Positions 8,830 through 31,947 of a DNA stretch of 32,000 bases are shown in pieces; positions within the stretch are counted from its first letter, which is position 1, and every line of letters starts with the position of its first letter. The notes under the pieces are model-generated. The model saw nothing but the letters and a program-made list of their open reading frames with translations. It was not told the DNA's origin and searched no databases. Source of the DNA: Pseudoalteromonas translucida KMM 520 (GTDB taxonomy: Bacteria; Pseudomonadota; Gammaproteobacteria; Enterobacterales; Alteromonadaceae); assembly GCF_001465295.1 (NCBI RefSeq), contig NZ_CP011035.1, positions 180,001-212,000 on the forward strand, written 5' to 3'. The position numbers and the translations under genes were made by a program.

Positions 8830-8907
8830 ATTAAACCAATCAGAATAAACAGCTTTCATATTTGCCTTTAGTCGCTGTTTATAAAAATAATCAAACAAGA
8901 GAATACT

Positions 8908-10398: not shown

Positions 10399-12212
10399 TG
10401 GCTGAGTCAAAAATACCAAACCAAAACGCAGAGCAGCTAATCACCGAGCATCTTGATATTTGGACCACTGCCATAGAGCAAAAGTCGTCATCAGGGCGCG
10501 GCTCATCTAAAAAGTTTTCACTTCATGGCATTAAAAAACTCCGCGAACTTATTTTAGAGCTCGCAGTGCGTGGCAAATTAGTGCCACAAGACCCAAACGA
10601 CGAACCCGCCGCCAAACTTTTAGAGCGTATAGCAGCTGAAAAAGCGCAATTGGTAAAAGATAAAAAAATTAAAAAGCCAAAAGCACTACCGGAAATCAGT
10701 GAGGAAGAAAAGCCGTTTGAATTGCCACAAGGGTGGGAGTTTTCTAGATTAGGAGTCACTCTTACCAAAATTACTGATGGTACTCATCATTCACCACCTA
10801 ATAGTGATACAGGTGATTACCTCTATATTTCTGCTAAAAATATTAAGAATAATGGTGTTCAACTTAGTAATGCGTCTTATATTACTAAGGAGCATCATGA
10901 TGAGATATATGCACGCTGTGATCCGGAATTTGGTGACCTTTTATATATCAAGGATGGTGCAACTACTGGAATAGTAACAATTAACCAGCTTGAAAAACCA
11001 TTTTCAATGCTTTCAAGTGTTGCACTTTTAAAATGTTCAAATTATATCTTGAATAAGTATTTATTAATTGCACTTCGCTCTCCATTTTTCTATCAAGAAA
11101 TGAGAGCTGGTATGACAGGTGTTGCGATCACAAGGGTGACACTGAAAAAATTGGATAATGCATTTATCCCAATTCCGGCACTCGAAGAGCAACACCGTAT
11201 CGTTGCTAAAGTCGATGAGTTAATGAGCTTGTGTGATGCGCTTGAGGCACAAACTGAAAATAGTATTTCGGCACATCAAACATTAGTTGAAGTACTGTTA
11301 GAGGCCTTGCTAAAAGCACCAGAGCAAACCGCAACACCCGAACAAACCACTGCGCAGTTTCAACAAAACTGGCAACGCTTAAGCGAGCACTTCGACACGC
11401 TATTCACCACCACAGCCAGCATCGACACGTTAAAGCAAACCATTTTACAACTAGCTGTAATGGGCAAACTCGTCCCACAAAACCCAAACGACGAACCCGC
11501 AGCCAAACTCCTAGAGCGCATAGCAGCAGAAAAAGCTCAACTGATTGAAGACAAAAAAATCAAAAAGCAAAAACCACTGCCAGAAATCACCGACGAAGAA
11601 AAACCGTTAGTGTTACCACAGAGTTGGTCGATATGTCGATTGGCAGAACTATTACCTCAGTTTCAAAATGGTGCTTCAAGTAGAGGTGACAAAAGTGGTC
11701 GTGAAATTATTGTATTAAGATTGGCAGATATTAAAAATTGGGAAGTTTGTCTAAAAGAAACTCGTTTGATTCAAATAGAAGAAAACTCAATCAATAGATA
11801 CCAGCTTAATAAAGATGATATTTTGATCATTCGAGTAAATGGTAGTGCTGATATAGTGGGACGTTTGATCGCTTGTAGGGATGATTTTGATGCAATTTAT
11901 TGTGATCACTTTATTAGAATGCGCTTTCCATTCAAAATTTTCACTACGGAATTTATTTCACTACTTGGGTCCACAGATCTAATTCGTAAAAGAATAGCTG
12001 AGTTATTTGTTAGCACCGCTGGTCAAAAAACGGTTAATCAAACTCATATAGGTTCATTAATAGTTACAGTTCCTCCTTTAGAAGAGCAGCAACGCATCGT
12101 GACTAAAGTCGATGAGCTAATCTCACTATGCGACCAACTCAAAGCTCGTTTGACTGACGCACAAACCACTAAGCTTCACTTAACCGACGCCATAGTCGAA
12201 CAGGCGTTGTAA
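10398..12212 (+). CDS. hsdS: type I R-M specificity subunit (two target-recognition domains)
   Basis: The start overlaps the hsdM stop (TAATG). It has duplicated conserved spacer regions and duplicated EEQ(H/Q)RIV(A/T)KVDEL(M/I)SLCD helices flanking two divergent TRDs. Confidence 0.92.
   Translation: MAESKIPNQNAEQLITEHLDIWTTAIEQKSSSGRGSSKKFSLHGIKKLRELILELAVRGKLVPQDPNDEPAAKLLERIAAEKAQLVKDKKIKKPKALPEISEEEKPFELPQGWEFSRLGVTLTKITDGTHHSPPNSDTGDYLYISAKNIKNNGVQLSNASYITKEHHDEIYARCDPEFGDLLYIKDGATTGIVTINQLEKPFSMLSSVALLKCSNYILNKYLLIALRSPFFYQEMRAGMTGVAITRVTLKKLDNAFIPIPALEEQHRIVAKVDELMSLCDALEAQTENSISAHQTLVEVLLEALLKAPEQTATPEQTTAQFQQNWQRLSEHFDTLFTTTASIDTLKQTILQLAVMGKLVPQNPNDEPAAKLLERIAAEKAQLIEDKKIKKQKPLPEITDEEKPLVLPQSWSICRLAELLPQFQNGASSRGDKSGREIIVLRLADIKNWEVCLKETRLIQIEENSINRYQLNKDDILIIRVNGSADIVGRLIACRDDFDAIYCDHFIRMRFPFKIFTTEFISLLGSTDLIRKRIAELFVSTAGQKTVNQTHIGSLIVTVPPLEEQQRIVTKVDELISLCDQLKARLTDAQTTKLHLTDAIVEQAL
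10551..10736 (+). repeat. hsdS internal direct repeat, copy 1 (conserved region)
   Basis: Encodes ILELAVRGKLVPQDPNDEPAAKLLERIAAEKAQLVKDKKIKKPKALPEISEEEKPFELPQGW. Its near-identical partner is at 11442-11627. Confidence 0.85.
11442..11627 (+). repeat. hsdS internal direct repeat, copy 2 (conserved region)
   Basis: Encodes ILQLAVMGKLVPQNPNDEPAAKLLERIAAEKAQLIEDKKIKKQKPLPEITDEEKPLVLPQSW. Confidence 0.85.
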
Positions 12213-12214
12213 CT

Positions 12215-13561
12215 ATGGCAATTATTTTCGAACAGCCACAAACTATTGCGCAGTTGTTAGCGCAACAACTCACGATTCCTGAGTACCAAAGGCCCTACAA
12301 ATGGCAGGCCAAGCACGTTAATCAGTTAATTGATGATATTTTTAATCACCGCACTAAGCCGTGTTATCGGCTCGGTACTGTTGTATTGCATCAAGATAAA
12401 GAATCAGTGAATGAGAATAAAAAACAGACACTGAACATCGTTGATGGCCAGCAGCGGCTGCTCACTTTAACGCTGCTTTGCACCATTCTTGATGGGGCTG
12501 AGAAAGCTATTTCATCCTCTTTGCTTGAACATAAGTTTGAATCATCAGTCAGTATCGACAACCTCAAAAATAATGCTCAGATCATTTCTGAACGAGCAGC
12601 AAGTTTGACTGCCCCCGAAAAGCAGGAATTGCTTAATTTTGTGCTTAACAAGTGCGAGCTTATTCAAGTTACGTTAGATGACTTGAGTGAAGCGTTTCAG
12701 TTTTTTGATTCTCAGAATGCCCGTGGTAAAGCCCTTGCGCCGCACGATTTGCTCAAAGCATATCACCTGCGTGAAATGATGGACGCCACGACACAAACAG
12801 AACGCTTGCACCATGTAAGCCTGTGGGAGCAAGGCGTTAACCCTGATGATGATTCAGCCAATTTGCACACCATCATGGGGGAGTTTTTGTTTCGTATGCG
12901 CCGATGGATTGACGGTGATTACGGCATTGCGTTTAGTCGTCATAACATTGATGTATTCAAGGGTATTAACTTGGATAACGCACAATATGCTTATGTGGAT
13001 GCAATGCTGGCGCTCGATTACGCGATTGAAACCTTTAATGGCGATCCTATGCGAAAATGGGACAAGCAAACTAAGAGTTACCCTTTCCAAGTAGAACAGG
13101 TGATGATCAACGGTAAGCGCTTTTTTGAGTACATTCAGCATTATATGACCATTCACACAAGCTTGTTTGTTGGCAACGAGGCAAAGCTCTCTTTATTTGT
13201 TGATAAATACGCTAGGTACAGTGGCAGTCACCGTAAAGGGGATAGCTATGTGCGTAATTTATTTTTGTGTACCGTGATGTATTACTACGACAAATTTGGT
13301 GATGTGGAGTTAGAAAAAGCGGCGCAGATTTGTTATCGCTGGGCATATTATTTACGCCTTGAATTGCAACGTATTGGCATGGAATCAGTTGATAACCACG
13401 CTAAAAGCCGTAGTGGGTTATTTAGAGCAATTCGCAAAGCTGTTCACCCTCAACAGGTGTTGAACTTTCAGCCGCTTTACATAAAAGTGCCTAAGTTTAA
13501 TAATGCTGAGGAAGTACAAGGGTTTATTGAAGCAATGAAATCGGGAAGTATCAATGAGTGA
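12215..13561 (+). CDS. DUF262 (ParB-like / GmrS-type) domain protein with no obvious His-Me finger nuclease domain
   Basis: Motifs [21 protein letters not shown] and [18 protein letters not shown]. The ATG lies 2 nt after the hsdS stop. Confidence 0.75.
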
Positions 13562-15488
13562 TGTGAACCAAGTAGAACAGTTATCCGTTAGAGCGCTTTT
13601 TAATAAGAAAACTGAATATATTATCCCTATTTATCAGCGGAATTACGCTTGGGGTGCACCTGAGATTGAGCAGCTTATTCAAGATATTAGTGATGCCGCA
13701 GGGCTTATTACTCAGCCAGGTGAAACTGTTAGCGTAAAACAAGTAAAATATTACCTGGGTAGTCTTGTTGTGTATCAGCGCACAACTCATTCACAGCAAT
13801 CAAATGTGGTGTACGAGACTATTGATGGGCAGCAAAGGCATACCACGCTCTCTATTTTATTGGCGTATCTAAAACATCGAAAAGTATTGGATGAGAGTGA
13901 CCTAGCAGGGTTAGACATTAACCTAACTTTTGATAGTCGCCCAAAATCTTCCAGAGCGTTAGATGATATTTATAAAGGTAAGTCAAGTGGCGAGGCTGAA
14001 GAGCCTAACATTCATGCTGCGTTGAACATTATTCAGCGTTACTTCAAAACCAAAGGGCTAGATACAGAGGCTAAAATTAAGCAGTTTTGCGAATACCTGT
14101 TAGATAACGTCACTATATTGAAAGTCGTTGTGCCACCGCAAACCGATCTTAATCACTACTTTGAGATCATGAATAATCGTGGTGAGCAGCTAGAAAAACA
14201 CGAAGTATTGAAAGCGAAATTCATGGCTACACTGAGCAATGATGAGGGAAGAAACTGTTTTTCGACCATTTGGGATGCTTGCTCAAATATGACGCGTTAC
14301 ACACAGATGGGTTTTCAATCTGATTTGCGTAAAGAAGTATTTGGTGACAATTGGCAAACAATGCCAAAAAGCTTTGATGTAATTCAAGCAAAGCATACGA
14401 GTAAACAGCAAAAACAAGATGCAATGACACTACGCGAAATTATCGACAACAAAACACCCAGTGAAAATACCGATGATGAAGAGCGCGAGAAAGAAGAGCG
14501 CTTTGGTACGGTTATCGACTTTTCAAACTTCTTACTCCATGTACTAAAGTTGATGCCTGAGATTAAGGGTGTATCGCTTGATGATAAAAAATTACTTAAT
14601 GCGTTTATCAGTAAAGATAATGGCTTGAAGGTAGAAGCCAAAACCTTTGTATATGAGTTGCTTAAGTACCGAATTCTATTTGATAGCTACATCATCAAGC
14701 CTGACCAACACAATGAAAAGCGTAAGTGGAGCCTACAAACACTCATAGCTAATACGAGCGGTACTAGCACAAGTTCTAGCTATAATAACTCTTTTGGTAA
14801 AGACCAAGACACATTAAATGAAAAATTGCGCATGATATTAGCAATGTTCCATGTATCAAACCCAGCCTTAGTTTATAAGCGCTGGTTAAATGATGCGCTA
14901 AGTATTTTGAATAGGAATGTTACACAGGATGCGGATTTAAGCATTGATGGAGAGGTGTACTTAACTGAGCTTGAACGCTTAAGCGATCGCTATTTTGAAG
15001 AAATCACTGTCGGCCAATGTTTAACATTTAGTGATGAGAATCAAGGCGTATTACACCAAGGAACGGGAGTTCAAAACTTCGTGTTTAATCGGTTGGATTA
15101 CCTTTTGTGGAAGCGTTTATCAGATGGTGAAACATTTGATGGTAAAGGTAAAAAAGAGCTTGGAAAGCACTTTGATGATTTTCAGTTTAATTTTAGAACT
15201 TCTGTTGAGCATTACTTCCCGCAAACTGATCCATCAGGTGCAAGCAAAATGGAGGATGTCGATCGCTTTGGAAATTTATGTTTAATTTCGCCAAGTAGTA
15301 ACTCGAGGCTCAGCAATTACTCCCCGCAGGATAAAAAGTCCTTCTATCGTGAGAACAATCGTGCCGAGAGTTTAAAGCAAGCGATTATGATGAGTTACGA
15401 TGACTGGGGCCCCGTGGGACTAGGTCGAACAAATTTAAAAAACCATGAATCGGCCATGTTAAAGGTTTTATCCGCAATAAAAATATGA
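13554..15488 (+). CDS. GmrSD-family type IV restriction-like protein (DUF262 + DUF1524 His-Me finger)
   Basis: Motifs [21 protein letters not shown] and [18 protein letters not shown]-terminal VEHYFPQ...[17 protein letters not shown]. It overlaps the upstream gene by 8 nt. Confidence 0.8.
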
Positions 15489-15868: not shown

Positions 15869-17635
15869 ATGGATATACTAGAAAGTTTACTACGCAGTTT
15901 TGATACAAATGTTGTTAGCGGTGCTGTATTAATTTTAATGTTTTTTGTTTTTGGTTCAGGTTTGTTTTACACCAAAAAGGCTAGGCAAGTTGAGTTTGTT
16001 CAGTTTGTTCCAACACTATTAACTACTATGGGTATATTTGGTACTTTTTTAGGTATAGTTCTTGGTTTATTAGAATTTAACCAAAATGATATAGAAGCCA
16101 GTATTCCGTTGTTGCTAGCGGGCTTAAAAACTGCATTTATTACAAGTTTAGCGGGTATATTTTTATCTTTAGTGTTTAAAACACTGTCTACGTTCTCATT
16201 TTTAAAACCTAAGCAACCAGAAGATAGCATTTCTCATGCAACACCTGAGGCGATATTAGGTGCTATGCAAGCGCAGGTTGCAGAAACAAAAGTTTTAAAA
16301 GAAGCGATTGTTGGTAATGAAGAGTCAACACTGTTTGGTCAATTAAAAATATTACGTGGTGATATAAATGACAATGCAAAAACATCGATAAATATTGCCC
16401 AAGAACAAGCTGTAAAACAACAAGAGAGCTTTGAGGCGTTTAGTGAAAAGCTATGGCTTAAACTACAAGACTTTGCAGATACTTTATCAAAGTCAGCTAC
16501 AGAGCAAGTTATTGAAGCATTAAAGCAGGTGATTAGTGATTTTAATAACAACTTAACAGAGCAGTTTGGTGATAACTTTAAACAATTAAATGAAGCGGTA
16601 ATTAAATTAGTTGAATGGCAAGAAAACTATAAAATTCAGCTTAAAGAAATGAGTGACCAATACGCTCATGGTGTTGCTTCTATTTCTGCTACTGAATCAT
16701 CTGTTGCTCATATTAGTGAGCAAAGCCAAATAATTCCTCAATCAATGGGTGAACTAAAAGGTGTTATGGAAGTTAATCAGCATCAATTAGCTGAGCTTGA
16801 ACGCCATCTAGAGGCCTTTAAAGATATGCGCGACAAAGCTGTTGAAGCCGTCCCGCAAATTCAAAAGCAAGTCGAAGCTACAGTAAACGATATATCGGCT
16901 GCTGTAACAACAGCGAGTGACCATTATAAAACCCTTCTTACACAATCAGACGATTACATAAAAACTCACGTTCAGACATCTAATGATTTATTAGACAAGT
17001 TTGCTCATGAAACAGAGAAAGGCATTAATAGTGTTGGTGAGCGTTTGATTGAAAGCTCAGACAAGATTGCTACAGAAGTAGATAATGCTGGCACTGATTT
17101 CATAAATCGTACAAGCAGAACAAATGAAAGTTTACAAGTTAGCTCTGATGCTTTATCAAAAAATAGTAAAGAGATACAGTATCACTTAGAGGGTACCGTT
17201 AGCGACCTAAACAATCATATGCGTGACATGATTGAAAAACTAGTAGATGACGCTAAAGATATTACTTCAACTATGAAGCAAGCTAATCAAAACCTTGTGA
17301 CCGATACAGAGCAGGTGCGTGACACTGTGGTTAAGTCTGCAGAAAAACTTCAGCAACGCCTTAACGAAGTTATTGACGATGCAGCTACACAGCAAATTAA
17401 TCAAGCTAAACGTACCTTTGACGCAATGGAAGATGAGGTTAAAAAGCAGGTTGGTATGACTGGGGAAGCTGTAGACTCGCAACTAAAACTTATTGATACT
17501 GCGATGCAGCAAGAAATAAACCGTGTAATGAACGAAATGGGTAAGGCACTTGCACAGGTAAGCGGTAAATTTGTTGATGATTATATTAAGCTAACTAAAG
17601 CGATGAATGAAGTTGTAAGTCAGCGAGTAATGTAA
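15869..17635 (+). CDS. zorA: Zorya ZorA (MotA/ExbB-like membrane domain + long coiled-coil tail)
   Basis: N-terminal TM helices with MotA/ExbB-type motifs (TTMGIFGTFLGIVLGL and LLAGLKTAFITSLAGIFLSL), then about 470 aa of coiled-coil-like sequence. zorB and zorE lie downstream. Confidence 0.85.
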   Translation: MDILESLLRSFDTNVVSGAVLILMFFVFGSGLFYTKKARQVEFVQFVPTLLTTMGIFGTFLGIVLGLLEFNQNDIEASIPLLLAGLKTAFITSLAGIFLSLVFKTLSTFSFLKPKQPEDSISHATPEAILGAMQAQVAETKVLKEAIVGNEESTLFGQLKILRGDINDNAKTSINIAQEQAVKQQESFEAFSEKLWLKLQDFADTLSKSATEQVIEALKQVISDFNNNLTEQFGDNFKQLNEAVIKLVEWQENYKIQLKEMSDQYAHGVASISATESSVAHISEQSQIIPQSMGELKGVMEVNQHQLAELERHLEAFKDMRDKAVEAVPQIQKQVEATVNDISAAVTTASDHYKTLLTQSDDYIKTHVQTSNDLLDKFAHETEKGINSVGERLIESSDKIATEVDNAGTDFINRTSRTNESLQVSSDALSKNSKEIQYHLEGTVSDLNNHMRDMIEKLVDDAKDITSTMKQANQNLVTDTEQVRDTVVKSAEKLQQRLNEVIDDAATQQINQAKRTFDAMEDEVKKQVGMTGEAVDSQLKLIDTAMQQEINRVMNEMGKALAQVSGKFVDDYIKLTKAMNEVVSQRVM

Positions 17636-18333
17636 TGGAAAAGATATTTGGCTCTCAAAACACCTCACAAGATAGTGGTGACCATTGGTTAACTGTATCA
17701 GATTTGATGGCTGGTCTAATGGTTGTATTCTTGTTTATAGCTATTGTTTTTATGATGATAACTCAAAAAGAAAACGACAAGATTAAAGATGTTGCTGTTG
17801 CTTACCAACAAAACCAAGTTGCTATATATGAAGCTCTAGAAAGCGAGTTTGAAAAAGACCTTGATAAGTGGGGAGCAACAATAGACAAAGAAACGTTAGC
17901 GTTTAACTTTCAATCTCCAGATGTGTTATTTGCTAATAATGAAACTAGATTAAGCGACGCATACAAAGAAATATTAAACGACTTTTTCCCCCGTTATATC
18001 AACGTGCTTGCCCCGTTTAGGGACTCTTTAGATGAAATTCGTATTGAGGGTCATACCTCAAGTGTTGGTTTAAGAGGCTCTACAGAGGCGCAAGCATACT
18101 TTTATAATATGCGATTATCTCAGGGGCGAACACGTTCTGTATTAGAGTATGGCTATGCACTTATGCCTAATGAGTCTGATTGGATTAAAGCTAATATTGC
18201 TGCAGTTGGTTTTTCATCTTCACGCTTGATTAAAGAGAATGGAGTGGAAGATGCTGCAAGGTCAAGGCGTGTATCCTTTAGGGCTATTACTAATGCTGAT
18301 ATTCAAATAAAACGGATACTGGAGGCGCAGTAA
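17635..18333 (+). CDS. zorB: Zorya ZorB (MotB-like TM with conserved Asp + OmpA-like peptidoglycan-binding domain)
   Basis: DHWLTVSDLMAGLMVVFLFIAIVF and IRIEGHTSSVG...NMRLSQGRTRSV. The start overlaps the zorA stop. Confidence 0.85.
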   Translation: MEKIFGSQNTSQDSGDHWLTVSDLMAGLMVVFLFIAIVFMMITQKENDKIKDVAVAYQQNQVAIYEALESEFEKDLDKWGATIDKETLAFNFQSPDVLFANNETRLSDAYKEILNDFFPRYINVLAPFRDSLDEIRIEGHTSSVGLRGSTEAQAYFYNMRLSQGRTRSVLEYGYALMPNESDWIKANIAAVGFSSSRLIKENGVEDAARSRRVSFRAITNADIQIKRILEAQ

Positions 18334-19469
18334 TGAAGCTAACAGTTGATTTTAGTGCGTTACATAGAGCGGTAGCACCCTTAGGGCAAGTTGTTACAGA
18401 CTTTTCTATTACCAGTGATGCTTCTGAACTTGAGAGCATTGGCAGTCATCTTAATCAAGGGATGATTTTAGGTAAAGATGTACAGTTAGATGAAATTGAT
18501 GGGTCAAACGGTGTACTAAACTATGATGGTCATCAGGTTATGCTATATATACCAGATCAAGGAGATGACATTGAAGCAGTGTTGTCTAATGGTAAATTGG
18601 GACGACGTATCCATGTGGCAGAGTGTTCTACTCTTGAGTTGATGCGAGAAACAGGCCGGTTTAAACGCTATGATGTAATTAATCGCGTTGATGGTTTTTT
18701 TCCTGTATTTGGCTCTAGCTACAGAGGAGGGCCTAATACAGAGGGGGAGGCTGATTTAGGTGTATGCAAAAACTGCTTAAAAATTCTTAATTACAAGGGT
18801 TATTCTACTCAAAGTTCTCAAGTTAAAAACCAAGTATTTAATAGTTTTTCATTTGAACAATTTTTCGAAGTTTATAGCTCCTACTTTAAAAGTTTACCTG
18901 TTAACAGTAAAAAAAGCACAAGCGGTTATACGTCAGATTGGCCATCAATTTCGGCTAAGTTAAGAAGCGATTTAAATTACTCATGTGAGCAATGCGGCAT
19001 TGATCTTAAATCTGAAAAAAGGCTCTTACATACTCATCATATCAATGGGAATAAAGCAGATAATGAACGAGATAATTTGAGAGTACTTTGTGCAGATTGC
19101 CATAAAAAGCAACCACATCATGACCATATATATGTAAGTAACTCAGATATTCTCAAAATTAACCAGCTTAGACGAGAACAACATAAGTTTGACGTGTTTA
19201 ATTACGATAATCTGCGAGAGTGTGCAGATACAGCATTAGATGGCCTTTTACAAAAATGTGAGTCGACTAGATTACCAGGTGCTGAGCTAGGGATTGTTAT
19301 TCAAGATAAAGAAACATTTGTTTCAATCGATCTTTGCTGGCCAAGGCGTAAAGTAGCGGTGCTTATTAATATGAGTAATTCTAATATATTAAGAAAACAC
19401 GGCTGGACTGTATTTACTGCATTCGACGCCTTGAATAACTTTGAGAATTTTCAGCGCCAAATTAGATAA
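18333..19469 (+). CDS. zorE: Zorya type II ZorE (HNH endonuclease)
   Basis: HNH motif CEQCG...HTHHINGNKADNERDNLRVLCADCHKK. It is translationally coupled to zorB. The ZorA-ZorB-ZorE gene order defines type II Zorya. Confidence 0.8.
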   Translation: MKLTVDFSALHRAVAPLGQVVTDFSITSDASELESIGSHLNQGMILGKDVQLDEIDGSNGVLNYDGHQVMLYIPDQGDDIEAVLSNGKLGRRIHVAECSTLELMRETGRFKRYDVINRVDGFFPVFGSSYRGGPNTEGEADLGVCKNCLKILNYKGYSTQSSQVKNQVFNSFSFEQFFEVYSSYFKSLPVNSKKSTSGYTSDWPSISAKLRSDLNYSCEQCGIDLKSEKRLLHTHHINGNKADNERDNLRVLCADCHKKQPHHDHIYVSNSDILKINQLRREQHKFDVFNYDNLRECADTALDGLLQKCESTRLPGAELGIVIQDKETFVSIDLCWPRRKVAVLINMSNSNILRKHGWTVFTAFDALNNFENFQRQIR

Positions 19470-19927: not shown

Positions 19928-20491
19928 ATGGAGCAAGCATTACAGTTTAATAGGTTATACAAGGATATTTCAGAAAGTCTGAAAAGTACTCAAGGAGATC
20001 TTTCCTCTCTAACGTTAGATAACCAAGAAGGTAAAGAAAAACTCAGTGGTATTGTTGCTCAACTAGCATCAATCAAAAGTCACTTTGATAGTGAGCTAGG
20101 GCTATTGCAAGAAAATGCCGAATGGGAAAACTTTGTTATTGCATTTTTTGGTGAAACTAATGCTGGCAAAAGTACAATTATTGAGTCTCTTCGCATACTG
20201 TTTAATGAAGAATCTCGTCAAAACTTAATTAATTCAAACATTAATGATTTAAATGAAGCAAAGCAAACATTAGAAGAACATGTGAGGATTGTGAAAAGCT
20301 ATATTGAACAGGTTGCACTAACACACGCTACACAATACCAATCTTTGCAAAATGAAGTTATTAAAATAACCGATATCATTCGACTAGAATCTTCCCAAAG
20401 AGTTAAGAAAAAAAATATTATTAGCCTTTTTATGGGAGCTTTTTTAGGAACTGGGTTAACTAGTTTGTGTTGGATTATGTTTAGAGGCTAA
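19928..20491 (+). CDS. leoC: LeoC-like protein: N-terminal part (G1 P-loop) of a split dynamin-like GTPase, with a C-terminal TM segment
   Basis: P-loop FFGETNAGKSTIIESL (nt 20150-20176), a coiled coil, then the hydrophobic tail IISLFMGAFLGTGLTSLCWIMF. The next gene starts 1 nt after the stop. Confidence 0.7.
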   Translation: MEQALQFNRLYKDISESLKSTQGDLSSLTLDNQEGKEKLSGIVAQLASIKSHFDSELGLLQENAEWENFVIAFFGETNAGKSTIIESLRILFNEESRQNLINSNINDLNEAKQTLEEHVRIVKSYIEQVALTHATQYQSLQNEVIKITDIIRLESSQRVKKKNIISLFMGAFLGTGLTSLCWIMFRG

Positions 20492-20492
20492 T

Positions 20493-22176
20493 ATGAATTT
20501 CGATACAGATGTTTCAATGGTCACGCCTTCTGGTACCCCAAAGATTAGTGGTGATGCAAAAAAATTAAATAAAAAAGATTTGGTAAATGAAACCTTTACG
20601 AAAATTGATTTGCTTGTTGACTCCTTCAAGGATGTTATTGATTCACATAGCATGATGTTTCGCACAGATGGAACTATCATTGGCACAGGTAAAGCTGACT
20701 TTACTCAGGGCAATACAACTTATGTGTTAAGTAATTCAGGTAAAAAATTTCATTTGATTGACGTTCCAGGAATTGAAGGTAACGAATCAAAATATGAAAC
20801 GATGGTAAAACAAGCTGTAGCTAAAGCCCATTTGGTTTTTTATGTCAACGGAACTAATAAAAAGCCCGAAAAAGTTACAGCAGAAAAGATTAAAAGCTAC
20901 TTAAACCGTGGCACACAGGTTTGCCCTTTATTAAACGTGAGGGGGAATGCTGACTCTTATGAATTTGAGGAAGATAGAATATCTCTGAGTAATGAGCATA
21001 ACAATACAGGCCTATTGCAAACCACCGAGGTGTTAGAGCAATGTATTGGAAAAAAAAGGCTTTTACCAGCTTATTGTGTTCAAGGTTTATTAGCATTTTC
21101 TTCATTGGCTAAAACAGAGCAAAATATATCAACAATTCATTCCTCTAGACAAAATGACCTTATAATCCAACAACGAAACTTTCTTAAGCACTTTCATAAA
21201 CATGAAGCCATGCAAGAATTTAGTGGCATTAAAAATATTGCTAATGTTTTAGAGAGTAAGGCTGCAACTTTTCGTGAAGACATCGTTGAAAGTAATAAAG
21301 AGAAAGTAAAAGAATTACTCAACGAAAAATCATCGATATTGAATAGCTTATTGTTTGATTACCGGTCTTTCTTTGAAAAAATTAAACCCGAATTCTCTGC
21401 TTGTGAAGCCTCTATCAATGATAAGTTCTACTTGTTTAAACAAAGTTTATGCAATGGGCGGCGAAACTTACTTGAGCAATTTTTTTCTAATCTTGCAAAC
21501 AAGGCTGATGATATTGTTGAAGATAACTTTGGGGATGAAGACTCAATATCTAGGCAGTTAAAGCTAGCGAGCAATGAGGGGCAAGAAAACTTAGTAAAGG
21601 AGTTCTCCGAGCACTTTAAAAAATGCGTTGATGTTTTGTTAGAGGACTTAAAAACTGCAATGTTGCGACTTATCGAAGATATTCAAAGAGTTGAATTTCA
21701 AACTGATTTAGAAAAAATCAAATCTCTAGATAAAGTTAACTTTCAAACTTCTGAAATAGAAATGGGTTTTGATTTAAAAGACTTTGGTAAGTTTGCTTTT
21801 AATATTGCATCTTATGCTCTATCAGGTTTTGCTATTGGTACTGCATTTCCGGGGATTGGAAATATTGTGGGTGCTATTGCTGGAGCAGTTGTTGGGATAC
21901 TTTCTAGTTTGTTATCAGTTTTCACAAGTAAAGCTAAGAGAATTAGAAAAGCCCAATCTAAGGTTCAAAGTAGAATTGACGATGCTCGCGATTCAGCCCT
22001 AAATAAGGTGACAGAGGATCTTGAGCAAGTTGTTAATGATGTCAGTGACAACATAATATCTCCAATTAAAGAACAGGTTGATCTTCTTCAAAAAAGTGTT
22101 AATGACCCTATTGAAATTATTAATCAACAAATAAAAATAATGGCTAATTTATCAGAAAAAGTGGAAGCAATGCCTT

Positions 22177-22199
<23 letters not shown>
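20493..22199 (+). CDS. leoB: LeoB-like dynamin-like protein (G2-G4 part of the GTPase, stalk, Gly-rich membrane paddle)
   Basis: It has no P-loop of its own. G3 is HLIDVPGIEG and a G4-like NGTNKK follows. The hydrophobic Gly-zipper is SGFAIGTAFPGIGNIVGAIAGAVVGILSSLLSVF. Confidence 0.7.
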
Positions 22200-25072
<2,873 letters not shown>

Positions 25073-25149
25073 TTTTTCACCCAAATTTGTATGCTTATTA
25101 GCATAACATTTCTTTCTTAATGGGTGGCCAAAATCACTGTACCACTACA

Positions 25150-25598: not shown

Positions 25599-26003
25599 CT
25601 ATTCAAAACCATGTGTTGATAGAGTGATAGTTACTGTAGCTTCAAATTTATCATTAACACTGGGCAAAACTTCTTTCGCTTTAAAAAATTTCGAATCGCT
25701 GTTTAAATTCCATGAATCTTCATTTGAAACCTTTTGAGTTTTAATAGAGCCATCTTGAAATTTATCTAGAGCTTTTGAAAAGCCTGCACTTACACCAAGA
25801 TTAAATGCTTCAAGAATAAGATTATCGATTTCAGGGGATGCCTCATTAAGTTTGCCGAGTTTTGCTTTCAACTCAGCAATGGCGTTATCCACGCCTTTAC
25901 ATTCAGAATCGAGGACTCCTGCTTCTCTTAATCTTTTAATTACGTAGTTTTGACCAATTTTATTATACATACCACCGTCTTTACTTTTTTTTCTTGTTTC
26001 CAT
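25599..26003 (-). CDS. hypothetical protein (134 aa)
   Basis: Strong RBS AGAGGAAA. It lies 12 nt downstream of the 214-aa gene. No motif recognised. Confidence 0.6.
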   Translation of the reverse strand: METRKKSKDGGMYNKIGQNYVIKRLREAGVLDSECKGVDNAIAELKAKLGKLNEASPEIDNLILEAFNLGVSAGFSKALDKFQDGSIKTQKVSNEDSWNLNSDSKFFKAKEVLPSVNDKFEATVTITLSTHGFE

Positions 26004-26015
26004 AAGGTTTCCTCT

Positions 26016-26660
26016 TTAATTATTAATCCAAATATTAGTTAAATTTTTTGTATCCATCATTTCGTTAATTTCAATTAGCTTTAAATATGCTTTATTCTTA
26101 CTAGCCTTTTGTTCTGGTTTAGCAAGCTTTGAATTTGCCATTGTGACGGGAGTTACGTTTATGTAGTGAAAGCTATCTAAGCGGGTAAGAACTTTATTCA
26201 AAATATCGGTAGAAACTGAAGTTTTAAATAACTTATGTAGGTGCTTTGTAAGCGGAGTGGGGTCTATTTCTCTTTCAAATCCATCGCTAAAAACAATATC
26301 TATCCCAAATTCACCATAATTTTCGAGGTCTAGCTCTTTTGAGGTACATAGGTAAACTATGCCTTCCCCGTTGTGACGCCATTCAAGTATTTCAAATAAG
26401 GCTAAGGCTATTTTAATATCCAGCGGTTGTAAGTTAGGGTTGGAGATAACATTTAAAACAAAATGCTCATATCCTTCAGGTGCTTTATCAAATGCAAATA
26501 CATCGCCATTGTTATTTTTAGTAGATATTTGTAACAGTGGGCGATGAATGTATGTCTCACCAAGAGCCATATATTCTTTCGATAATTTTGAGTTTTGGTG
26601 TTTATTTTTAATAACAATAGGATTATCGAATGAGCCCGGGTTTTTATTTATTATTTCCAT
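26016..26660 (-). CDS. hypothetical protein (214 aa)
   Basis: RBS AGGA. It is the first gene of a two-gene operon and is divergent from the AAA+ gene. No motif recognised. Confidence 0.6.
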   Translation of the reverse strand: MEIINKNPGSFDNPIVIKNKHQNSKLSKEYMALGETYIHRPLLQISTKNNNGDVFAFDKAPEGYEHFVLNVISNPNLQPLDIKIALALFEILEWRHNGEGIVYLCTSKELDLENYGEFGIDIVFSDGFEREIDPTPLTKHLHKLFKTSVSTDILNKVLTRLDSFHYINVTPVTMANSKLAKPEQKASKNKAYLKLIEINEMMDTKNLTNIWINN

Positions 26661-26899: not shown

Positions 26900-28921
26900 A
26901 TGAGCACAACCTCTCAATTAAAACGTATTGTGGCACACTTTTCCACTGAATTATTAGAAGAGTTTAACATAGAAGGGCTTTCGCAAGATAAGCTATTTAA
27001 AAAGGCTTTATGTAACATTTCTGGCTTTAGTTATGCTAATTCACAAGGCTTAGATGTTGATGATTTGATAGCCCGATTAGAGCATTTAGCAATAAATACA
27101 ATGCCTAAAATGCTGCAAAAAAATGTGCATATATTTTGTAAAGCGTTTGGTCTGCCCAAAACGCTTACTCCTTTAGTTATTTTTTCGTGTTGTATGACGC
27201 TCAGTAAACCATTACGCGAACTTGTAGAGTACTTACGTGACGATTACGCGAGCGTTATTTTAGAAAAAATAGCTTACGTTCTTGGTTTTGATGAAGCACT
27301 ACTTAATAAGCAAATTAGTTTGGTTATTGAATCTGGTATGTATTCAATGGATATGGAGATATTTGCAGGGGAAGATGAGTTTTTAATTTTACCAAACTCA
27401 ATTGCTAAAAGCCTGCTCGAGGGTAAGTTAAATAGTGAAAGTGATATTTTATCTAACTTGGTTACCCCTTGTGAAGCTTCTGAACTTAGCGCTGCTGATT
27501 TATCTCACTTAGATTTAAATACTTTGCTTAAAGCTACGCAAAACGCAACAAAGAGCGGCGGGCAATCATTGAGTATTTTATTTTATGGCGTGCCAGGTTC
27601 GGGCAAAACTTCATTGGCGAAATATATAGCGCAAGCGTGTGGTTCGCAGTTGCTTAAGGTGCAAGCTAAAGGTAGTAATTTAATAAACCCAACAAACGAG
27701 CTCGATAGCCGAAGCGCAAGTTCTGAGCTGCGCTTAGAGCACTTTAATGTGGTAAGTAAGTTGGTAGGTAAGCGTAAAAAAACTATGCTGTTACTGGATG
27801 AATGTGAAAACATTTTTGAGCGTGATTTATTTTCAAAAAGCTTTTCAAAAGAGTTACTTCATACCTATATTGAAAATCATCCTGTAGTGAGTATTTGGAT
27901 CACTAATCATCTAGAAGAGTTACCACAGAGCGTTATTAGGCGATTTAATATTGTTTACGAAATTCCTGAGCTAAACAAAGCAACTAAAGAAAAAATGATT
28001 GGCAAATATGTTAAAGGTTTGAGTGTTGGTAACAGTTTTATAAGTAAATTAGCTACTCAACAAAACTTACTGCCAGCTCATATCGCTAAAGCGGTACATG
28101 TAGCAAGGTTATGTGGATTTAAAGCACAGACTGCGCGTGAATGCATAGAAGAGAATATTCAAGATACTTTAACTGCATGCGGCTTTTCGGCTCACGAATT
28201 AACTTATCAAGCAGCGCAAAAGTTTAATCCTGGAATGGTGAATATAGAGTCTGAGTATGCATCACTCGAACAGGTTGAAGAGGCTGTAATTGAATATTCG
28301 AGTTCACGAACTCTACTAACGGGCCCGCCAGGCACCGGTAAAACAGCTTTTGTAAATTACTTATGCGAAAAAGCTGATTTTAAACTTATATCTGTTAAAG
28401 CATCTGACTTATTAAGCAAGTGGGTTGGCGAAAGTGAGCAAAATATTGCTCAACTATTTAAGCAAGCTACACAAGAAGGAAGTGCAATATTTATTGATGA
28501 GGCAGATAGCTTGCTATGTAGCCGTGAACAAGCGAAGGCTAATTGGGAAGTGCAAACAGTTAATGAATTACTATGCCATATGGAGCAATTTCAACTCCCA
28601 CTTTTTGCAGCAACTAACTTTGCTAAAAATTTAGATAAAGCGGTAATGAGGCGATTTGATTTTAATTTAAATTTAACCTATTTAACCTCGGTTCAGGCTA
28701 AGCAATTATTTAAAGATACATTAGGCCCAGGAGTGTTAAATAAGCACTTAATGCATGAGTTATTCCAGCTTACAAAGCTCACACCTGGTGACTTCGCGAT
28801 TGTAAAAAGGCAAATGAAGTTTTCAAAAAAGCGAATGACTCAAGAGCGAATGTTATCGGTTTTACAAGAGCAAAACGCTCTAAAAGAAGACGGAAAGCAG
28901 AAGATTGGGTTTGTTATTTAG
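26900..28921 (+). CDS. tandem AAA+ ATPase (degenerate D1 + classical-clade D2, Cdc48/Vps4-like) with a unique about 210-aa N-domain
   Basis: D1 has Walker A GVPGSGKT and Walker B LLLDECE. D2 has Walker A GPPGTGKT, the SKWVGESEQNIAQLF motif, Walker B IFIDEADS, sensor-1 AATN and MRRFD arginines. Confidence 0.8.
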   Translation: MSTTSQLKRIVAHFSTELLEEFNIEGLSQDKLFKKALCNISGFSYANSQGLDVDDLIARLEHLAINTMPKMLQKNVHIFCKAFGLPKTLTPLVIFSCCMTLSKPLRELVEYLRDDYASVILEKIAYVLGFDEALLNKQISLVIESGMYSMDMEIFAGEDEFLILPNSIAKSLLEGKLNSESDILSNLVTPCEASELSAADLSHLDLNTLLKATQNATKSGGQSLSILFYGVPGSGKTSLAKYIAQACGSQLLKVQAKGSNLINPTNELDSRSASSELRLEHFNVVSKLVGKRKKTMLLLDECENIFERDLFSKSFSKELLHTYIENHPVVSIWITNHLEELPQSVIRRFNIVYEIPELNKATKEKMIGKYVKGLSVGNSFISKLATQQNLLPAHIAKAVHVARLCGFKAQTARECIEENIQDTLTACGFSAHELTYQAAQKFNPGMVNIESEYASLEQVEEAVIEYSSSRTLLTGPPGTGKTAFVNYLCEKADFKLISVKASDLLSKWVGESEQNIAQLFKQATQEGSAIFIDEADSLLCSREQAKANWEVQTVNELLCHMEQFQLPLFAATNFAKNLDKAVMRRFDFNLNLTYLTSVQAKQLFKDTLGPGVLNKHLMHELFQLTKLTPGDFAIVKRQMKFSKKRMTQERMLSVLQEQNALKEDGKQKIGFVI

Positions 28922-29791: not shown

Positions 29792-29810
29792 CTCCACACC
29801 ACTTAATATA

Positions 29811-30785
29811 ATGATCTCACACCGCCATTTATCAATTTTAGAGCTTGTGCCAATAGCGCCTAGCTCTATCTCGATCCTTCAACTTCAGCAAAAGCTGGTT
29901 GATCGCGGTATTGTTTTATCAACCCGCATGCTTCAACGAGATCTTCAATCACTATACGAGCAAGGCTGCTTCGGTCTTGAAAAAGACACGCGCAGTAAAC
30001 CCTATGGCTGGTCTATCAATGCGCAGTGGAGAGGTGGTAACTCAAAAGTAATGAGCAGCGAAGTGGCAGAGCATTATTTGTTGTTGGAGCAATTACTACC
30101 GCAATCTGTACCCAGTGATGTTAAACAGTCGGTACATATTAAAGCAGAGCAGGCGCTTAAACGTTATAATGGCCATATGCCTGAGTGGCTTTCAACCCTG
30201 CCAAAACCGTCGTTAAAAGTGAATGTTGATACTCAGTTAGTTGAGCAAATTGAGCATGCGATTATGCATAAGCGTGCAGTGAGCGCTGAGCTTTATAGAG
30301 TACTTTATGATGAGGCTCATTGGCTAAAATTTGCGGAGTTAAGTTTTTACAACTTAGTTGAGCAAGGCGGTGTGTTAATGGCTCAGTTTATGGTGGGAGA
30401 GCTTCATGACAAGTGTTATCAAATGCCGGTTTACCGCATTCGCAATGTACACATTTTGCAAAAAACACGACGAGAGCCAAGCACTGAGCAATTAAAGTCG
30501 TTACGTAGTGCGATTAACAAAGGCATGTCGCAAGAAGCGATCGAGTTAGTTGTAAAAGTACCTATTCATTCGGCGGTTAATCAAGGCTTTATTGAACTTG
30601 GTGAGCTGATTAATAAACAACAGATTGATGATAAAAACGTATTACTTACCTATCAAACTATTGATACTGAACAACTAGTCGATGAGCTATTTAAATGTGC
30701 CCATTGGCTTGAGGTTATAAAACCTGAAAAGTTGCGGCAAAGAATCACTACAAAGCTTAAAGCGGCCGCTAACATTTATAAATAA
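29811..30785 (+). CDS. wHTH-WYL-WCX transcriptional regulator (BrxR/CapW-like)
   Basis: N-terminal HTH (ISILQLQQKLVDRGIVLSTRMLQRDLQSL). Central WYL-like beta region (...QMPVYRIRNVHIL). C-terminal WLEVIKPEKLRQRI, typical of the WCX end of this family. Confidence 0.65.
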   Translation: MISHRHLSILELVPIAPSSISILQLQQKLVDRGIVLSTRMLQRDLQSLYEQGCFGLEKDTRSKPYGWSINAQWRGGNSKVMSSEVAEHYLLLEQLLPQSVPSDVKQSVHIKAEQALKRYNGHMPEWLSTLPKPSLKVNVDTQLVEQIEHAIMHKRAVSAELYRVLYDEAHWLKFAELSFYNLVEQGGVLMAQFMVGELHDKCYQMPVYRIRNVHILQKTRREPSTEQLKSLRSAINKGMSQEAIELVVKVPIHSAVNQGFIELGELINKQQIDDKNVLLTYQTIDTEQLVDELFKCAHWLEVIKPEKLRQRITTKLKAAANIYK

Positions 30786-30799: not shown

Positions 30800-30829
30800 G
30801 GTGCGTCAAAAATTGACGCACCTGTTTGC
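30800..30829 (+). terminator. hairpin terminator, attenuator or operator between the WYL regulator and the FtsZ-like gene
   Basis: GGTGCGTCAA-aaa-TTGACGCACC 10-bp stem followed by TGTTTGCT, a weak T-tract. Confidence 0.5.
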
Positions 30830-30858
30830 TATGCTCCTTTTAAAGTTAAGGAGTAGTT

Positions 30859-31947
30859 ATGTTTCAATTAATTCAGCAAAATGATGGTTTATCGATTGGT
30901 GTATTTGGTATTGGTGGGTGTGGCTGTAATACTTTTAACAGTATTTTTGAACAACGCGAGTCTGAGCAGGCGCACTTGTTCAGCGTTAATACCGACAAAG
31001 TGGTACTTGAGCATACGCAAAGTGATGAAGCAGTACTTATAGGTGCAGAGCTAACTCATGGATATGGTGCGGGTGCCGACCCTAAAGTTGGGCTGCAAGC
31101 GGCAGAAGAGAGTAAAGATCAGCTTTTAACGCTTATTAATGGCTGCGATATAATACTGTGTGCAACAGGGTTGGGTGGTGGAACTGGGACTGGCGCTAGC
31201 CCGTATATTGCGCAACTTGCTATTGAGCAAGCCAAACCCATTATATTTGTTGCTACATTGCCATTTAGTAGTGAAGGGCAGTTTAGAAGCAATATAGCGC
31301 AAGCAGGTTTAAATGAGCTTAAAGAGCATGCTAATGCTGTTATTACTCTCCCAAATGATCAACTGATAGAAGTCCTTGGTAACGATATCGGCTTATTTGA
31401 TGCCTTCAAACATAGTAACCAAATACTCCATTCACTGATAAAGTCACTCATCGATATGCTTTGCTATCAAGGCTTAATAAACGTTGATTTAAATGACTTT
31501 GCTAAAATTATGGACTGCCAAGGTGATGCTGTACTTGGGGTAGGCAAATGTAATGAAGAAAGCGAGTTAACTGCTGCGCTTGATAGTGCACTTAATAATC
31601 CGCTGGTTAATCAAGTTGATATGTCATCAAGTACCGGCGTGATAATACAAGTGAACTGTAAAGATGAAATTTCACTAGGTAGTTATAACCTTATTACAGA
31701 TACAGTGCGCCAGCAGGTAAGCCCTAATGCGTTAGTTATTTGTGGTGTTTCAAAAATTGAAAACTTAGTAACCAATTATGAGCTACTGGTTATTGCTACG
31801 GGCGCGAGTTCAAAAATGATACTTGATGACACTAAAATTGAGTCAAGCTCTAAAGTAGTCGCCACTAAACCAAAAGCATCTGATATTTTTGATATTCCTG
31901 CTTTTATAAGAAATCAATCTGCACCACCTAGTAAAAGCTCTTTATAG
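30859..31947 (+). CDS. FtsZ paralogue (tubulin/FtsZ GTPase) in a non-dcw context
   Basis: Strong RBS AAGGAG. T1 loop GIGGCGCN, where canonical FtsZ has GGGGGN. Tubulin signature GLGGGTGTGASP. T7 loop NVDLNDFAKIM. C-terminal peptide DIFDIPAFIRNQ (nt 31882-31917), compared with E. coli DYLDIPAFLRKQ. The upstream gene is a WYL regulator rather than ftsA. Confidence 0.85.
   Translation: MFQLIQQNDGLSIGVFGIGGCGCNTFNSIFEQRESEQAHLFSVNTDKVVLEHTQSDEAVLIGAELTHGYGAGADPKVGLQAAEESKDQLLTLINGCDIILCATGLGGGTGTGASPYIAQLAIEQAKPIIFVATLPFSSEGQFRSNIAQAGLNELKEHANAVITLPNDQLIEVLGNDIGLFDAFKHSNQILHSLIKSLIDMLCYQGLINVDLNDFAKIMDCQGDAVLGVGKCNEESELTAALDSALNNPLVNQVDMSSSTGVIIQVNCKDEISLGSYNLITDTVRQQVSPNALVICGVSKIENLVTNYELLVIATGASSKMILDDTKIESSSKVVATKPKASDIFDIPAFIRNQSAPPSKSSL

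Follow-up and report, generated by a model that had tools for sequence, protein, structure and literature searches.

A conserved FtsZ paralog paired with a WYL-domain regulator and a putative operator in marine Gammaproteobacteria

What might an additional FtsZ be doing at the border of a defense island? This question is raised by a 32,000-nucleotide (nt) stretch of the Pseudoalteromonas translucida KMM 520 genome (assembly GCF_001465295.1, contig NZ_CP011035.1, positions 180,001 to 212,000 of the forward strand; hereafter the window), near the right-hand end of which resides an ftsZ-like gene encoding a protein of 362 amino acids (aa). A preliminary description of this DNA had placed the gene at the edge of a dense defense island, directly after a gene for a WYL-domain regulator and outside of the division and cell wall (dcw) cluster. 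These observations hold: ftsA, ftsQ and lpxC are absent from the window and likewise from every annotated related locus that was examined. The same description went on to suggest that the protein could be a regulated division poison, a decoy or guard for phage inhibitors of FtsZ, or an antagonist of phage tubulins. The comparisons presented below confirm, at the level of sequence, that the gene is a real and intact extra copy of ftsZ. In addition, the WYL gene is its dedicated and conserved partner, the two forming a two-gene module in marine Gammaproteobacteria; this partnership, together with its likely operator, is the key point that the earlier description had missed.

The ftsZ-like open reading frame (ORF) begins with an ATG that is preceded, at a distance of 5 nt, by the ribosome-binding site AAGGAG. 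Residues 13-173 of its product match the Pfam Tubulin family (PF00091, E 2.4e-39) and residues 222-315 match FtsZ_C (PF12327, E 3e-14, 53.5 bits versus a cutoff of 27), and the protein aligns end to end with solved structures of the Klebsiella/E. coli-type FtsZ (214 bits) and of M. jannaschii FtsZ (213 bits). Its fold can be considered settled, because the sequence match to solved FtsZ reaches an E value of 3e-62, and the alignment along the FtsZ globular domain that had been made by eye is thereby borne out. The motifs read at that time, namely the tubulin signature GGGTGTG, the T7 loop NVDLND, the GAGADPKVG segment (residues 70-78) and the unusual T1 phosphate loop GGCGCN, all reside where they had been placed, as does a short linker of ~25 aa (from about residue 317 to 341). 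The C-terminal peptide of the FtsA/ZipA-binding type is also present (Table 1), although it does not form the very end of the protein as had been claimed, since a tail of 9 aa, SAPPSKSSL, extends beyond the ...IRNQ with which the peptide closes. Given the intact T1-T7 motifs, the protein is predicted to be capable of GTP binding and polymerization.

The simplest explanation for such a gene would be that the housekeeping ftsZ has been displaced from the dcw cluster, and the NCBI annotation of the product, "cell division protein FtsZ", could be taken in that sense. Several features speak against this. The protein scores 276.3 bits against TIGR00065, the equivalog model for housekeeping FtsZ, and thus misses the curated cutoff of 295.2. 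It is 30-35% identical to each of the FtsZ proteins of E. coli, Legionella, Leptospira and Paenibacillus, such that its identity to the E. coli protein (~33%) equals that to FtsZ of Firmicutes or spirochaetes. The gene is also located on chromosome II. Finally, a gene for a 381-aa FtsZ-like protein comes next to that of a WYL protein filed under the name Shewanella violacea, a species whose dcw cluster, with its ftsZ, is described in the literature (Ishii 2002, as cited in PMC11362102), so that the pair and a dcw ftsZ both appear to occur in bacteria of this type. Because of the sub-cutoff TIGR00065 score, the equidistance from distant FtsZ proteins, the chromosome II location and the S. violacea-type pair, the gene is regarded as a paralog, as the preliminary description had supposed, and displacement of the housekeeping gene merits practically no credence. 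This evidence also indicates, indirectly, that the paralog exists alongside a housekeeping dcw ftsZ in the bacteria that carry it.

To find relatives of the paralog, a genome collection was scanned for DNA that would encode V-x-G-[IV]-GGCGCNT, and at least 120 stretches matched; ORFs were called and clustered in 78 clade loci, and an alignment of 117 full-length sequences was assembled. Locus counts given below refer to the matches listed, and individual loci are designated by L numbers where they need to be told apart. Every homolog covering the N-terminus among the 120 best listed carries GGCGCN in T1, save for one with GGCGGN. In the alignment, the T1 cysteines C21 and C23 are present in 117 of 117 and 116 of 117 sequences, respectively, and a third cysteine, C267, is invariant. 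The T7 residues N208, D210 and D213 are retained in all 117 sequences, and the D-I-P-x-x-x-R core of the C-terminal peptide is conserved across the clade (I in 116, P in 117 and R in 116 of 117). The residues that align with the two T1 cysteines are Ala and Asn in M. jannaschii, Gly and Asn in B. subtilis, and Gly and Gly in E. coli, whose T1 loops read GCGGAGNN, GVGGGGNN and GVGGGGGN, respectively. Thus, these positions vary among bona fide FtsZ proteins, and the cysteines are a signature of the clade rather than an argument for lost GTP binding. It is a matter of speculation whether the invariant Cys-Gly-Cys of the phosphate loop could act as a redox switch.

Full-length members of the clade, among the matches listed, are found in Pseudoalteromonas (66-97% identity to the window protein), a metagenome-assembled genome (MAG) of the Psychromonadaceae (50%), Colwellia, Thalassotalea and Cognaticolwellia (42-47%), Paraferrimonas (41%) and Shewanella (37-45%), and a protein search recovered a Moritella member at 47%. 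Identity to the window protein declines in step with taxonomy. The ratio of nonsynonymous to synonymous substitution rates of the ftsZ-like gene relative to its relatives is 0.05-0.15, which indicates a functional gene under strong purifying selection. Apparently, these GGCGCN paralogs constitute a distinct and previously undescribed clade. The same T1 loop is also found in proteins that fall outside of this clade (25-39% identity): tubulin-family ORFs of ~280-340 aa from archaea of the Thermoplasmata, Bathyarchaeia and Thermoprotei (L024, L036, L039, L044, L045 and ~35 more loci), some of which are arrayed in tandem, as well as proteins from rumen bacteria and a tandem FtsZ-like pair in a Succinivibrionaceae MAG (L017, 2257-4897).

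The replicons that carry the gene bear on another possible role, that of a TubZ-like filament for the partitioning of Pseudoalteromonas chromosome II. In this genus the gene does reside on chromosome II or on chromid-type replicons, including chromosome 2 of P. apostichopi, the 1.6-Mb second replicon of P. piratica and six complete replicons of 0.68-0.90 Mb that are filed as plasmids and contain one FtsZ match each; one of these, HL-AS1 (L134), also encodes der, bamB, hisS and ispG. In Moritella sp. 24 and Shewanella sp. DAU334, however, the gene is on the main, multi-megabase chromosome. Moreover, the FtsZ_C domain and the FtsA/ZipA-type peptide are FtsZ-like rather than TubZ-like, and neither a TubR-like partner nor a centromere-like repeat array was seen near the gene. 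A partition function is consequently viewed as very improbable. The paralog shares with TubZ, PhuZ, FtsZl-1 and FtsZl-2 its membership in the tubulin/FtsZ superfamily and an encoding position outside of dcw, but the FtsZl families carry Tubulin_2, in contrast to the PF00091 and FtsZ_C matches of this protein, which scores as true FtsZ and has the FtsA/ZipA-type peptide. Unlike the plasmid and phage tubulins TubZ and PhuZ, it was not encountered on any phage or mobilizable plasmid: a phage collection contained no close homolog, its matches being canonical FtsZ proteins of no more than 35% identity that are probably host contamination.

Directly upstream of the paralog in the window is the gene for the regulator, a 324-aa protein with the winged helix-turn-helix (wHTH), WYL and WCX architecture of DriD and PafBC, which is 100% identical to PTRA_b0202 of P. 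translucida KMM 520. Only generic WYL models were matched in PADLOC (E 6e-12). When a profile of 15 members of the regulator family was compared with the PDB, the only chains matched were those of Caulobacter DriD; the WCX domain was detected in all 15 members and the wHTH in six. An AlphaFold (AF2) model of the regulator (predicted local distance difference test score, pLDDT, of 82) gave 32 Foldseek matches at E<=1e-3, all of which are WYL regulators, ranked from PafBC (2e-11) and DriD (3e-11) to CapW (3e-6) and BrxR (2e-5). By analogy with these proteins, the WYL domain would be expected to bind single-stranded DNA (ssDNA) or another nucleic-acid ligand.

The association between the two genes is not peculiar to the window. 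The regulator family comprises 326 proteins in a large database, all of them from the same taxa as the paralog, and 49 of the 78 loci have a WYL gene next to the ftsZ-like gene, down to an FtsZ identity of 37%; a recurrent link between the clade and WYL genes, one of those that the preliminary description had envisaged, is thus real. The two genes are codirectional, with the WYL gene immediately upstream, in the Psychromonadaceae MAG, in all Shewanella loci and, with the exception of P. piratica, in every Pseudoalteromonas locus for which the upstream region was part of the fetched stretch. In Thalassotalea, Cognaticolwellia and C. hornerae the WYL gene is instead downstream and convergent. 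Most Colwellia and Moritella loci, as well as that of P. piratica, contain the paralog without an adjacent WYL gene. In the Colwellia loci lacking the WYL gene, a 140-aa HicB-like antitoxin-family gene is positioned divergently upstream of the ftsZ-like gene and next to the bioBFCD operon (L007, 9030-9452, and 20 other loci), and this gene may represent an alternative regulator. In P. piratica, the place upstream of the paralog (L004, 9366-9917) is taken not by a WYL gene but by the gene for a membrane protein in which a SPOR domain (E 2e-4) was detected; domains of this kind bind septal peptidoglycan and are typical of division proteins.

Between the two genes of the module is a perfect palindrome, TGCGTCAA-AAA-TTGACGCA, which occurs as a single copy in the window and once per Pseudoalteromonas locus, always just before the ftsZ-like gene. 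Of the 42 distinct loci linked to a WYL gene, 41 contain a relaxed, 17-bp form of the motif (GCGWCA-N5-TGWCGC, allowing up to two mismatches) at -55 to -72 from the ftsZ-like start, among them the four whose WYL gene is downstream and convergent. Among loci that have no WYL gene next to the paralog, 2 of 24 contain such a site, and an equally good match arose in 6 of 1480 shuffled sequences; one of those two loci is that of Paraferrimonas, and a WYL homolog is reported from the same strain, on a contig of equal length. Outside of Pseudoalteromonas, 20 of the 22 loci that could be evaluated have a second copy of the motif, 20-70 nt before the WYL gene, while in Pseudoalteromonas, where the island cargo abuts the WYL start, this second copy is absent. 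As RNA, the palindrome could form a terminator-like hairpin (dG -18.3, z -8.6), and it may double as the terminator of the WYL transcript. The notion that it is a mere WYL terminator was rejected, given that loci with a downstream, convergent WYL gene contain it, that it recurs before the WYL gene and that loci with no WYL gene lack it. Owing to this distribution, the palindrome is taken to be primarily a protein-binding site, and the WYL regulator is the likely protein that recognizes it as an operator.

Two related observations concern the reach of this putative operator. In P. phenolica-type loci, extra WYL-type palindromes flank two small genes downstream of the ftsZ-like gene (L059, 4261-5426; L049, 1904-3220). 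The 221-aa and 131-aa proteins encoded there have no Pfam, PADLOC or PDB match, and a by-eye guess that the former (C67) is HEPN-like received no support from these three sources; the two genes may be extra members of the regulon. Control by the WYL protein of the AAA and GIY-YIG-like genes that precede it in the window was also considered and rejected, as the window has no second copy of the palindrome and most loci lack the two genes.

The leader of the ftsZ-like gene contains two further elements of potential relevance. The first, TGcTATGCT, could be an extended -10 element and is retained as TGTTATGCT or TGCTATGCT across the Pseudoalteromonas loci. The second is a predicted hairpin in which the ribosome-binding site would be masked by pairing. 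Equivalent masking hairpins are predicted in Shewanella, where they are stronger and have other flanking sequence (L108, dG -22, z -6.2; L090; L035), and in other Pseudoalteromonas, and none is evident in the Colwellia loci that have no WYL gene. A search of the leader region against Rfam gave no significant family match.

Table 1. Coordinates of the module, of its sequence elements and of the preceding island genes in the window
Feature	Position	Strand	Remarks
PDC-M09A-like protein	5105-6175		island gene
Type I restriction-modification HsdR/M/S	6330-12212		island genes
GmrSD-like pair (GmrSD/DUF7834)	12215-15488		island genes
Zorya type II, ZorA/B/E (ZorA2/B2/E2)	15869-19469		island genes
Dynamin-like Eleos-type set	19928-23898		LeoB, E 4e-196, and DLP_helical protein
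IS3 transposase	23892-25084		island gene
AAA protein, 673 aa, IetA-like ATPase domain	26900-28921		island gene
GIY-YIG-like protein, 255 aa	29024-29791		weak UvrC-N/GIY-YIG-like match
WYL regulator gene, wHTH-WYL-WCX, DriD/PafBC-like, 324 aa	29811..30785	+	Pfam WCX, PADLOC WYL, Foldseek
Variable 5' end of WYL gene	29811..29919	+	right-hand border of exchangeable cargo; megablast
Perfect palindrome TGCGTCAA-AAA-TTGACGCA, putative operator	30802..30820	.	motif conservation
TGcTATGCT, possible extended -10 element of ftsZ-like gene	30827..30835	+	read from sequence; putative
Predicted hairpin masking the ribosome-binding site	30832..30855	+	CUCCUU pairs with AAGGAG (30848-30853); dG -10 kcal/mol, z -2.8
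ftsZ-like gene, FtsZ paralog of GGCGCN clade	30859..31947	+	362 aa; Pfam and PDB matches, motifs
T1 phosphate loop GIGGCGCN, residues 17-24	30907..30930	+	read from sequence
Tubulin signature GGGTGTG (T4 loop), residues 106-112	31174..31194	+	read from sequence
T7 loop NVDLND, residues 208-213	31480..31497	+	aligns to E. coli NVDFAD; N-x-D-x-x-D kept
C-terminal peptide DIFDIPAFIRNQ, FtsA/ZipA-type, residues 342-353	31882..31917	+	HMMER pairing with E. coli-type DYLDIPAFLRKQ

The arrangement of regulator, palindrome and division gene has a close counterpart among WYL-activated division inhibitors such as DriD-DidA of Caulobacter and DdaA-AciT of Acinetobacter. These regulators have the same wHTH-WYL-WCX architecture, with DriD being among the closest solved relatives of the regulator described here, and in both cases the target is a cell-division factor. 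The 20-bp palindrome recognized by DriD occurs both in the promoter of DriD itself and at positions -57 to -38 relative to the start codon of didA; the window palindrome resides at -57 to -39 from the ftsZ-like start, and loci outside of Pseudoalteromonas contain a site before the regulator gene as well, at which binding is presumed. The systems differ in that the effector here is a full FtsZ-family GTPase rather than a small membrane protein, and in that regulator and target are adjacent and co-inherited. The signal for DriD, PafBC, CapW and BrxR is ssDNA arising from DNA damage or phage replication.

Based on these parallels, we lean toward the reading that the gene encodes a tightly gated, inducible FtsZ paralog that modulates, and probably arrests, cell division as part of a WYL-operator-paralog module. 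In such a scheme, the regulator would bind the palindrome, which overlaps the promoter region of the ftsZ-like gene, and outside of Pseudoalteromonas it would also bind the copy before its own gene. Operator and hairpin would together keep the paralog off or low at two levels. If the regulator resembles DriD, PafBC, CapW and BrxR in this respect, its ligand would be ssDNA generated by DNA damage or phage replication, and whether the regulator then activates or de-represses the promoter, the outcome would be the same, in that the paralog is made. The protein would bind GTP, polymerize and dock on FtsA/ZipA through the C-terminal peptide on its short linker, thereby reaching the membrane-anchored Z-ring and co-assembling or competing with housekeeping FtsZ; such entry or competition is expected because the polymer motifs and the FtsA/ZipA-type peptide have been kept. 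The most likely outcome would be a transient arrest of division, making the paralog a functional analog of SulA, DidA or AciT, and this is the most economical prediction because WYL regulators drive DidA and AciT. Both the effect of the paralog on division and the signal received by its regulator are thus proposed by analogy, and in the same sense the regulated division brake advanced in the preliminary description is plausible. With SulA the paralog would share a damage-induced arrest acting on the Z-ring, although the two have no kinship of sequence or fold, SulA is controlled by LexA rather than by a WYL protein, and inhibition would proceed through co-assembly or competition for FtsA/ZipA instead of capping of the T7 surface. 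A stronger version, in which the pair is a self-contained, ssDNA-triggered division checkpoint against DNA damage, phage or both, with a polymerization-competent and perhaps redox-switched FtsZ paralog that plugs into FtsA/ZipA as its effector, is possible and is put forward more tentatively.

Several considerations weigh against an inducible brake. Most of the paralogs of Colwellia and Moritella, and that of P. piratica, are maintained with neither an adjacent WYL gene nor the palindrome, so that WYL control is not universal and a WYL-independent function is required. Both polymer interfaces are conserved, as would be expected of a functional filament-forming protein at least as much as of a pure poison. 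Part of the conservation of the palindrome could reflect termination of the WYL transcript. Furthermore, the TGcTATGCT element was not called by a simple promoter scan, and the promoter assignment is weak.

The first two of these considerations lend themselves to a different proposal, namely that the paralog is a productive second Z-ring protein that co-assembles with housekeeping FtsZ for conditional division or shaping, for instance at low temperature or high pressure. The intact and strongly conserved GTP-binding, T7 and C-terminal peptide motifs are in keeping with this idea, as are the persistence of the paralog without WYL in Colwellia and Moritella and the membrane SPOR-domain protein encoded upstream of it in P. 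piratica. The host genera are, in addition, largely marine and adapted to cold or pressure, and pressure disrupts FtsZ filaments (PMC11362102). An operator at the promoter and a masked ribosome-binding site nevertheless point to a gene that is normally silent, and a constitutive structural role would leave a WYL partner of the DNA-damage type difficult to explain. The linker is short (~25 aa), and in no locus are other divisome genes linked to the paralog. For these reasons a productive structural role appears rather unlikely, and the inducible division brake continues to be preferred.

The surroundings of the module in Pseudoalteromonas are of a different nature from the module itself. Whereas the WYL-ftsZ pair is constant, the cargo upstream of it varies in at least seven loci and is absent in one. 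In the window and in L047, the cargo is an island ending in the AAA and GIY-YIG-like pair; in L001, this pair is preceded by DarT and a type I restriction-modification system; in L011, it consists of HsdR and three large genes, including one for an SNF2-like helicase; in L008, of two GmrSD genes; in L135, of a ring nuclease, McrBC and an 838-aa protein; and in L084, of Zorya II. In L134 the upstream content is limited to HipBA and one hypothetical gene, and L003 has no defense genes upstream and a WYL gene split by a frameshift. The left end of the island is beyond the window; on that side, only a 130-nt stretch (window positions 297-427) matches L134, a relative with a small island.

The right-hand border of the cargo can be located with some precision. 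Megablast similarity to other Pseudoalteromonas loci begins, depending on the strain, at 29881-29919 (many strains) or at 29804-29811, the first ~58 aa of the WYL protein are 62% identical to those of L003 as compared with 88% for the remainder, and just 15-80 nt separate the WYL gene from the preceding cargo gene. Because the similarity between strains starts either at the 5' end of the WYL gene or 70-110 nt inside it, the pair is the fixed border of cargo exchange. The locus can thus be described as a Pseudoalteromonas defense hotspot on chromosome II in which cargo is swapped by recombination and the WYL-ftsZ pair forms the right-hand border. On the other side of the pair, the closest relatives contain one or two convergent tyrosine recombinases, and since the first 53 nt after the stop codon of the window ftsZ-like gene are identical to those of L046, a convergent tyrosine recombinase is also the gene to be expected downstream of the window pair, judging from L046 and L134.

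Several other observations pertain to exchange at this site. Pseudoalteromonas sp. APC 3691 contains, at L041 (5891-6546), a remnant in which the palindrome is flanked by the last 143 WYL codons and the first 50 ftsZ-like codons and which is ~92% identical to the window at the nucleotide level, and the full pair of that strain is on another contig (L070); the remnant is probably a scar of island exchange at the border of the pair. Relative to Pseudoalteromonas sp. Z1A8 (L047), synonymous divergence amounts to 0.08 in the WYL gene and 0.39 in the ftsZ-like gene, an inequality that implies a recent recombination breakpoint between them. As for the cargo, the 673-aa AAA protein of the window contains two AAA domains, with IetA-like ATPase matches far under the IteA equivalog cutoff, and in other Pseudoalteromonas strains its gene is accompanied by other partners (248 aa and 368 aa), such that the AAA gene and its partner look like an uncharacterized defense pair with a swappable effector. 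Two small genes of no known family reside beside the AAA and GIY-YIG-like pair on the minus strand (25599-26660).

It follows from this organization that the description of the paralog as island-borne requires qualification: the gene does sit at the edge of a hotspot in Pseudoalteromonas, but the cargo varies or is absent while the pair remains, and in Shewanella, Moritella and Colwellia the neighbors are housekeeping genes. The same facts bear on the proposal that the pair is a dedicated anti-phage module in which the WYL protein senses infection and the paralog poisons division in the manner of abortive infection, serves as a decoy or guard against phage proteins that inhibit FtsZ, or counteracts phage tubulins. 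The Pseudoalteromonas pair abuts defense or mobile genes in every locus with upstream sequence except L003, often with integrases just downstream, and WYL regulators of the CapW and BrxR types, which sense ssDNA, control defense systems. In 12 Pseudoalteromonas loci, moreover, a cREC_REC gene of ~100-110 aa is positioned directly downstream of the ftsZ-like gene (for example, L001, 11209-12307; L011, 11172-11465), and in L001, L002 and L112 it is followed by a SIR2-family gene; at this position, the closest relatives of the window have integrases. The S. violacea-type locus is flanked by bpMoxR-VWA-HEPN and AlpA-RadC-DUF2787.

On the other hand, PADLOC has no match for the FtsZ-like protein, for the cREC and SIR2 neighbors or for the other small neighbors (C24, C29, C48, C49, C67 and C68). 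In 21 loci of Shewanella, Moritella and related bacteria, the Pfam content of 81 neighboring genes is housekeeping, and the only PADLOC matches come from five generic UvrD-type helicases. Identity within the clade follows taxonomy, and no phage or true plasmid carrier was found, so that inheritance looks mostly vertical, unlike the transfer of defense genes. The regulator is likewise structurally nearer to DNA-damage activators than to CapW or BrxR: it shares with these repressors of CBASS and BREX its architecture, a palindromic (here putative) operator and a location in defense islands, but its structural matches to them are weaker (E 3e-6 to 2e-5, versus ~2e-11 for PafBC and DriD), and whereas CapW and BrxR head the systems that they control, this regulator follows variable defense genes and has its putative operator in the window solely before the ftsZ-like gene. 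A recurrent link to AAA+ or GIY-YIG genes, for which the preliminary description had also allowed, did not materialize, as among the 78 loci the former accompany the pair in only 6 and the latter in only 5. A defense system built on FtsZ is accordingly not a property of the family as a whole, in the absence of any PADLOC match or close phage homolog, and a dedicated anti-phage function is judged to be unlikely. For defense islands in general, the locus offers a caution, in that a conserved gene at a hotspot border may resemble cargo without being cargo.

The loci of the other genera can be briefly described in the same terms. Some Shewanella loci have prmA-dusB-fis upstream of the pair, the Colwellia loci place the ftsZ-like gene beside the biotin operon together with the solitary HicB-like gene, and in Moritella the surrounding genes are metabolic. 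The UvrD-type helicase, a protein of ~1000 aa with topoisomerase-type zinc ribbons, adjoins the pair in Shewanella L053, L035, L108, L129 and L090, and proteins with a UvrB_inter domain are encoded near the pair in two loci, which provides a weak hint of a DNA-repair neighborhood in Shewanella. One and the same 142-aa protein is encoded after the ftsZ-like gene in two genera (Moritella sp. 24, L006, 11118-11546; Shewanella sp. Isolate11, L048, 7462-7890); a GIY...YIG-like motif can be discerned in it by eye, and it has no match in Pfam or PADLOC.

How, then, does the paralog relate to FtsZ proteins that are already understood? With housekeeping FtsZ of E. coli, B. subtilis and M. jannaschii it has in common the Tubulin and FtsZ_C domains, the GGGTGTG and N-x-D-x-x-D motifs and a D-I-P-x-F-x-R peptide, and it is set apart by its position outside of dcw, its score below the TIGR00065 cutoff, its limited identity to the E. 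coli protein, the GGCGCN T1 loop and the clade-wide cysteines, including C267, and the adjacent WYL regulator. Its linker is about half the length of that of E. coli FtsZ, which is about 50 aa. Extra, non-essential FtsZ proteins that exist beside an essential copy are also represented by FtsZ1 and FtsZ3 of Agrobacterium, rhizobial FtsZ2 and Magnetospirillum FtsZm, and overexpression of Agrobacterium FtsZ1 disturbs septal wall synthesis. These alphaproteobacterial paralogs are typically truncated and without the C-terminal peptide, which the gammaproteobacterial paralog retains, and the literature search turned up neither a WYL partner nor an operator described for any of them. Few bacterial FtsZ duplications are known, and most of them yield truncated proteins that lack the peptide. 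Likewise, our literature search found no description of a gammaproteobacterial paralog of this kind, nor of any linkage between FtsZ and WYL proteins. The locus therefore combines two known kinds of element, an FtsZ paralog and a WYL-controlled division factor, and it is the conserved regulator-operator-paralog module that constitutes the more interesting finding.

Work on extra copies of FtsZ has centered on Alphaproteobacteria, plastids and archaea, in which most of the copies are truncated and of uncertain purpose. The module described here comes instead from well-known marine Gammaproteobacteria, and its second FtsZ is of full length, strongly conserved and equipped with a dedicated regulator, a defined putative operator and a predicted translational lock, which together make the function of the paralog directly testable. 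If it does prove to be an inducible brake or modulator of division, a tubulin-family effector would represent a new class among the WYL-run checkpoints that respond to DNA damage and phage.

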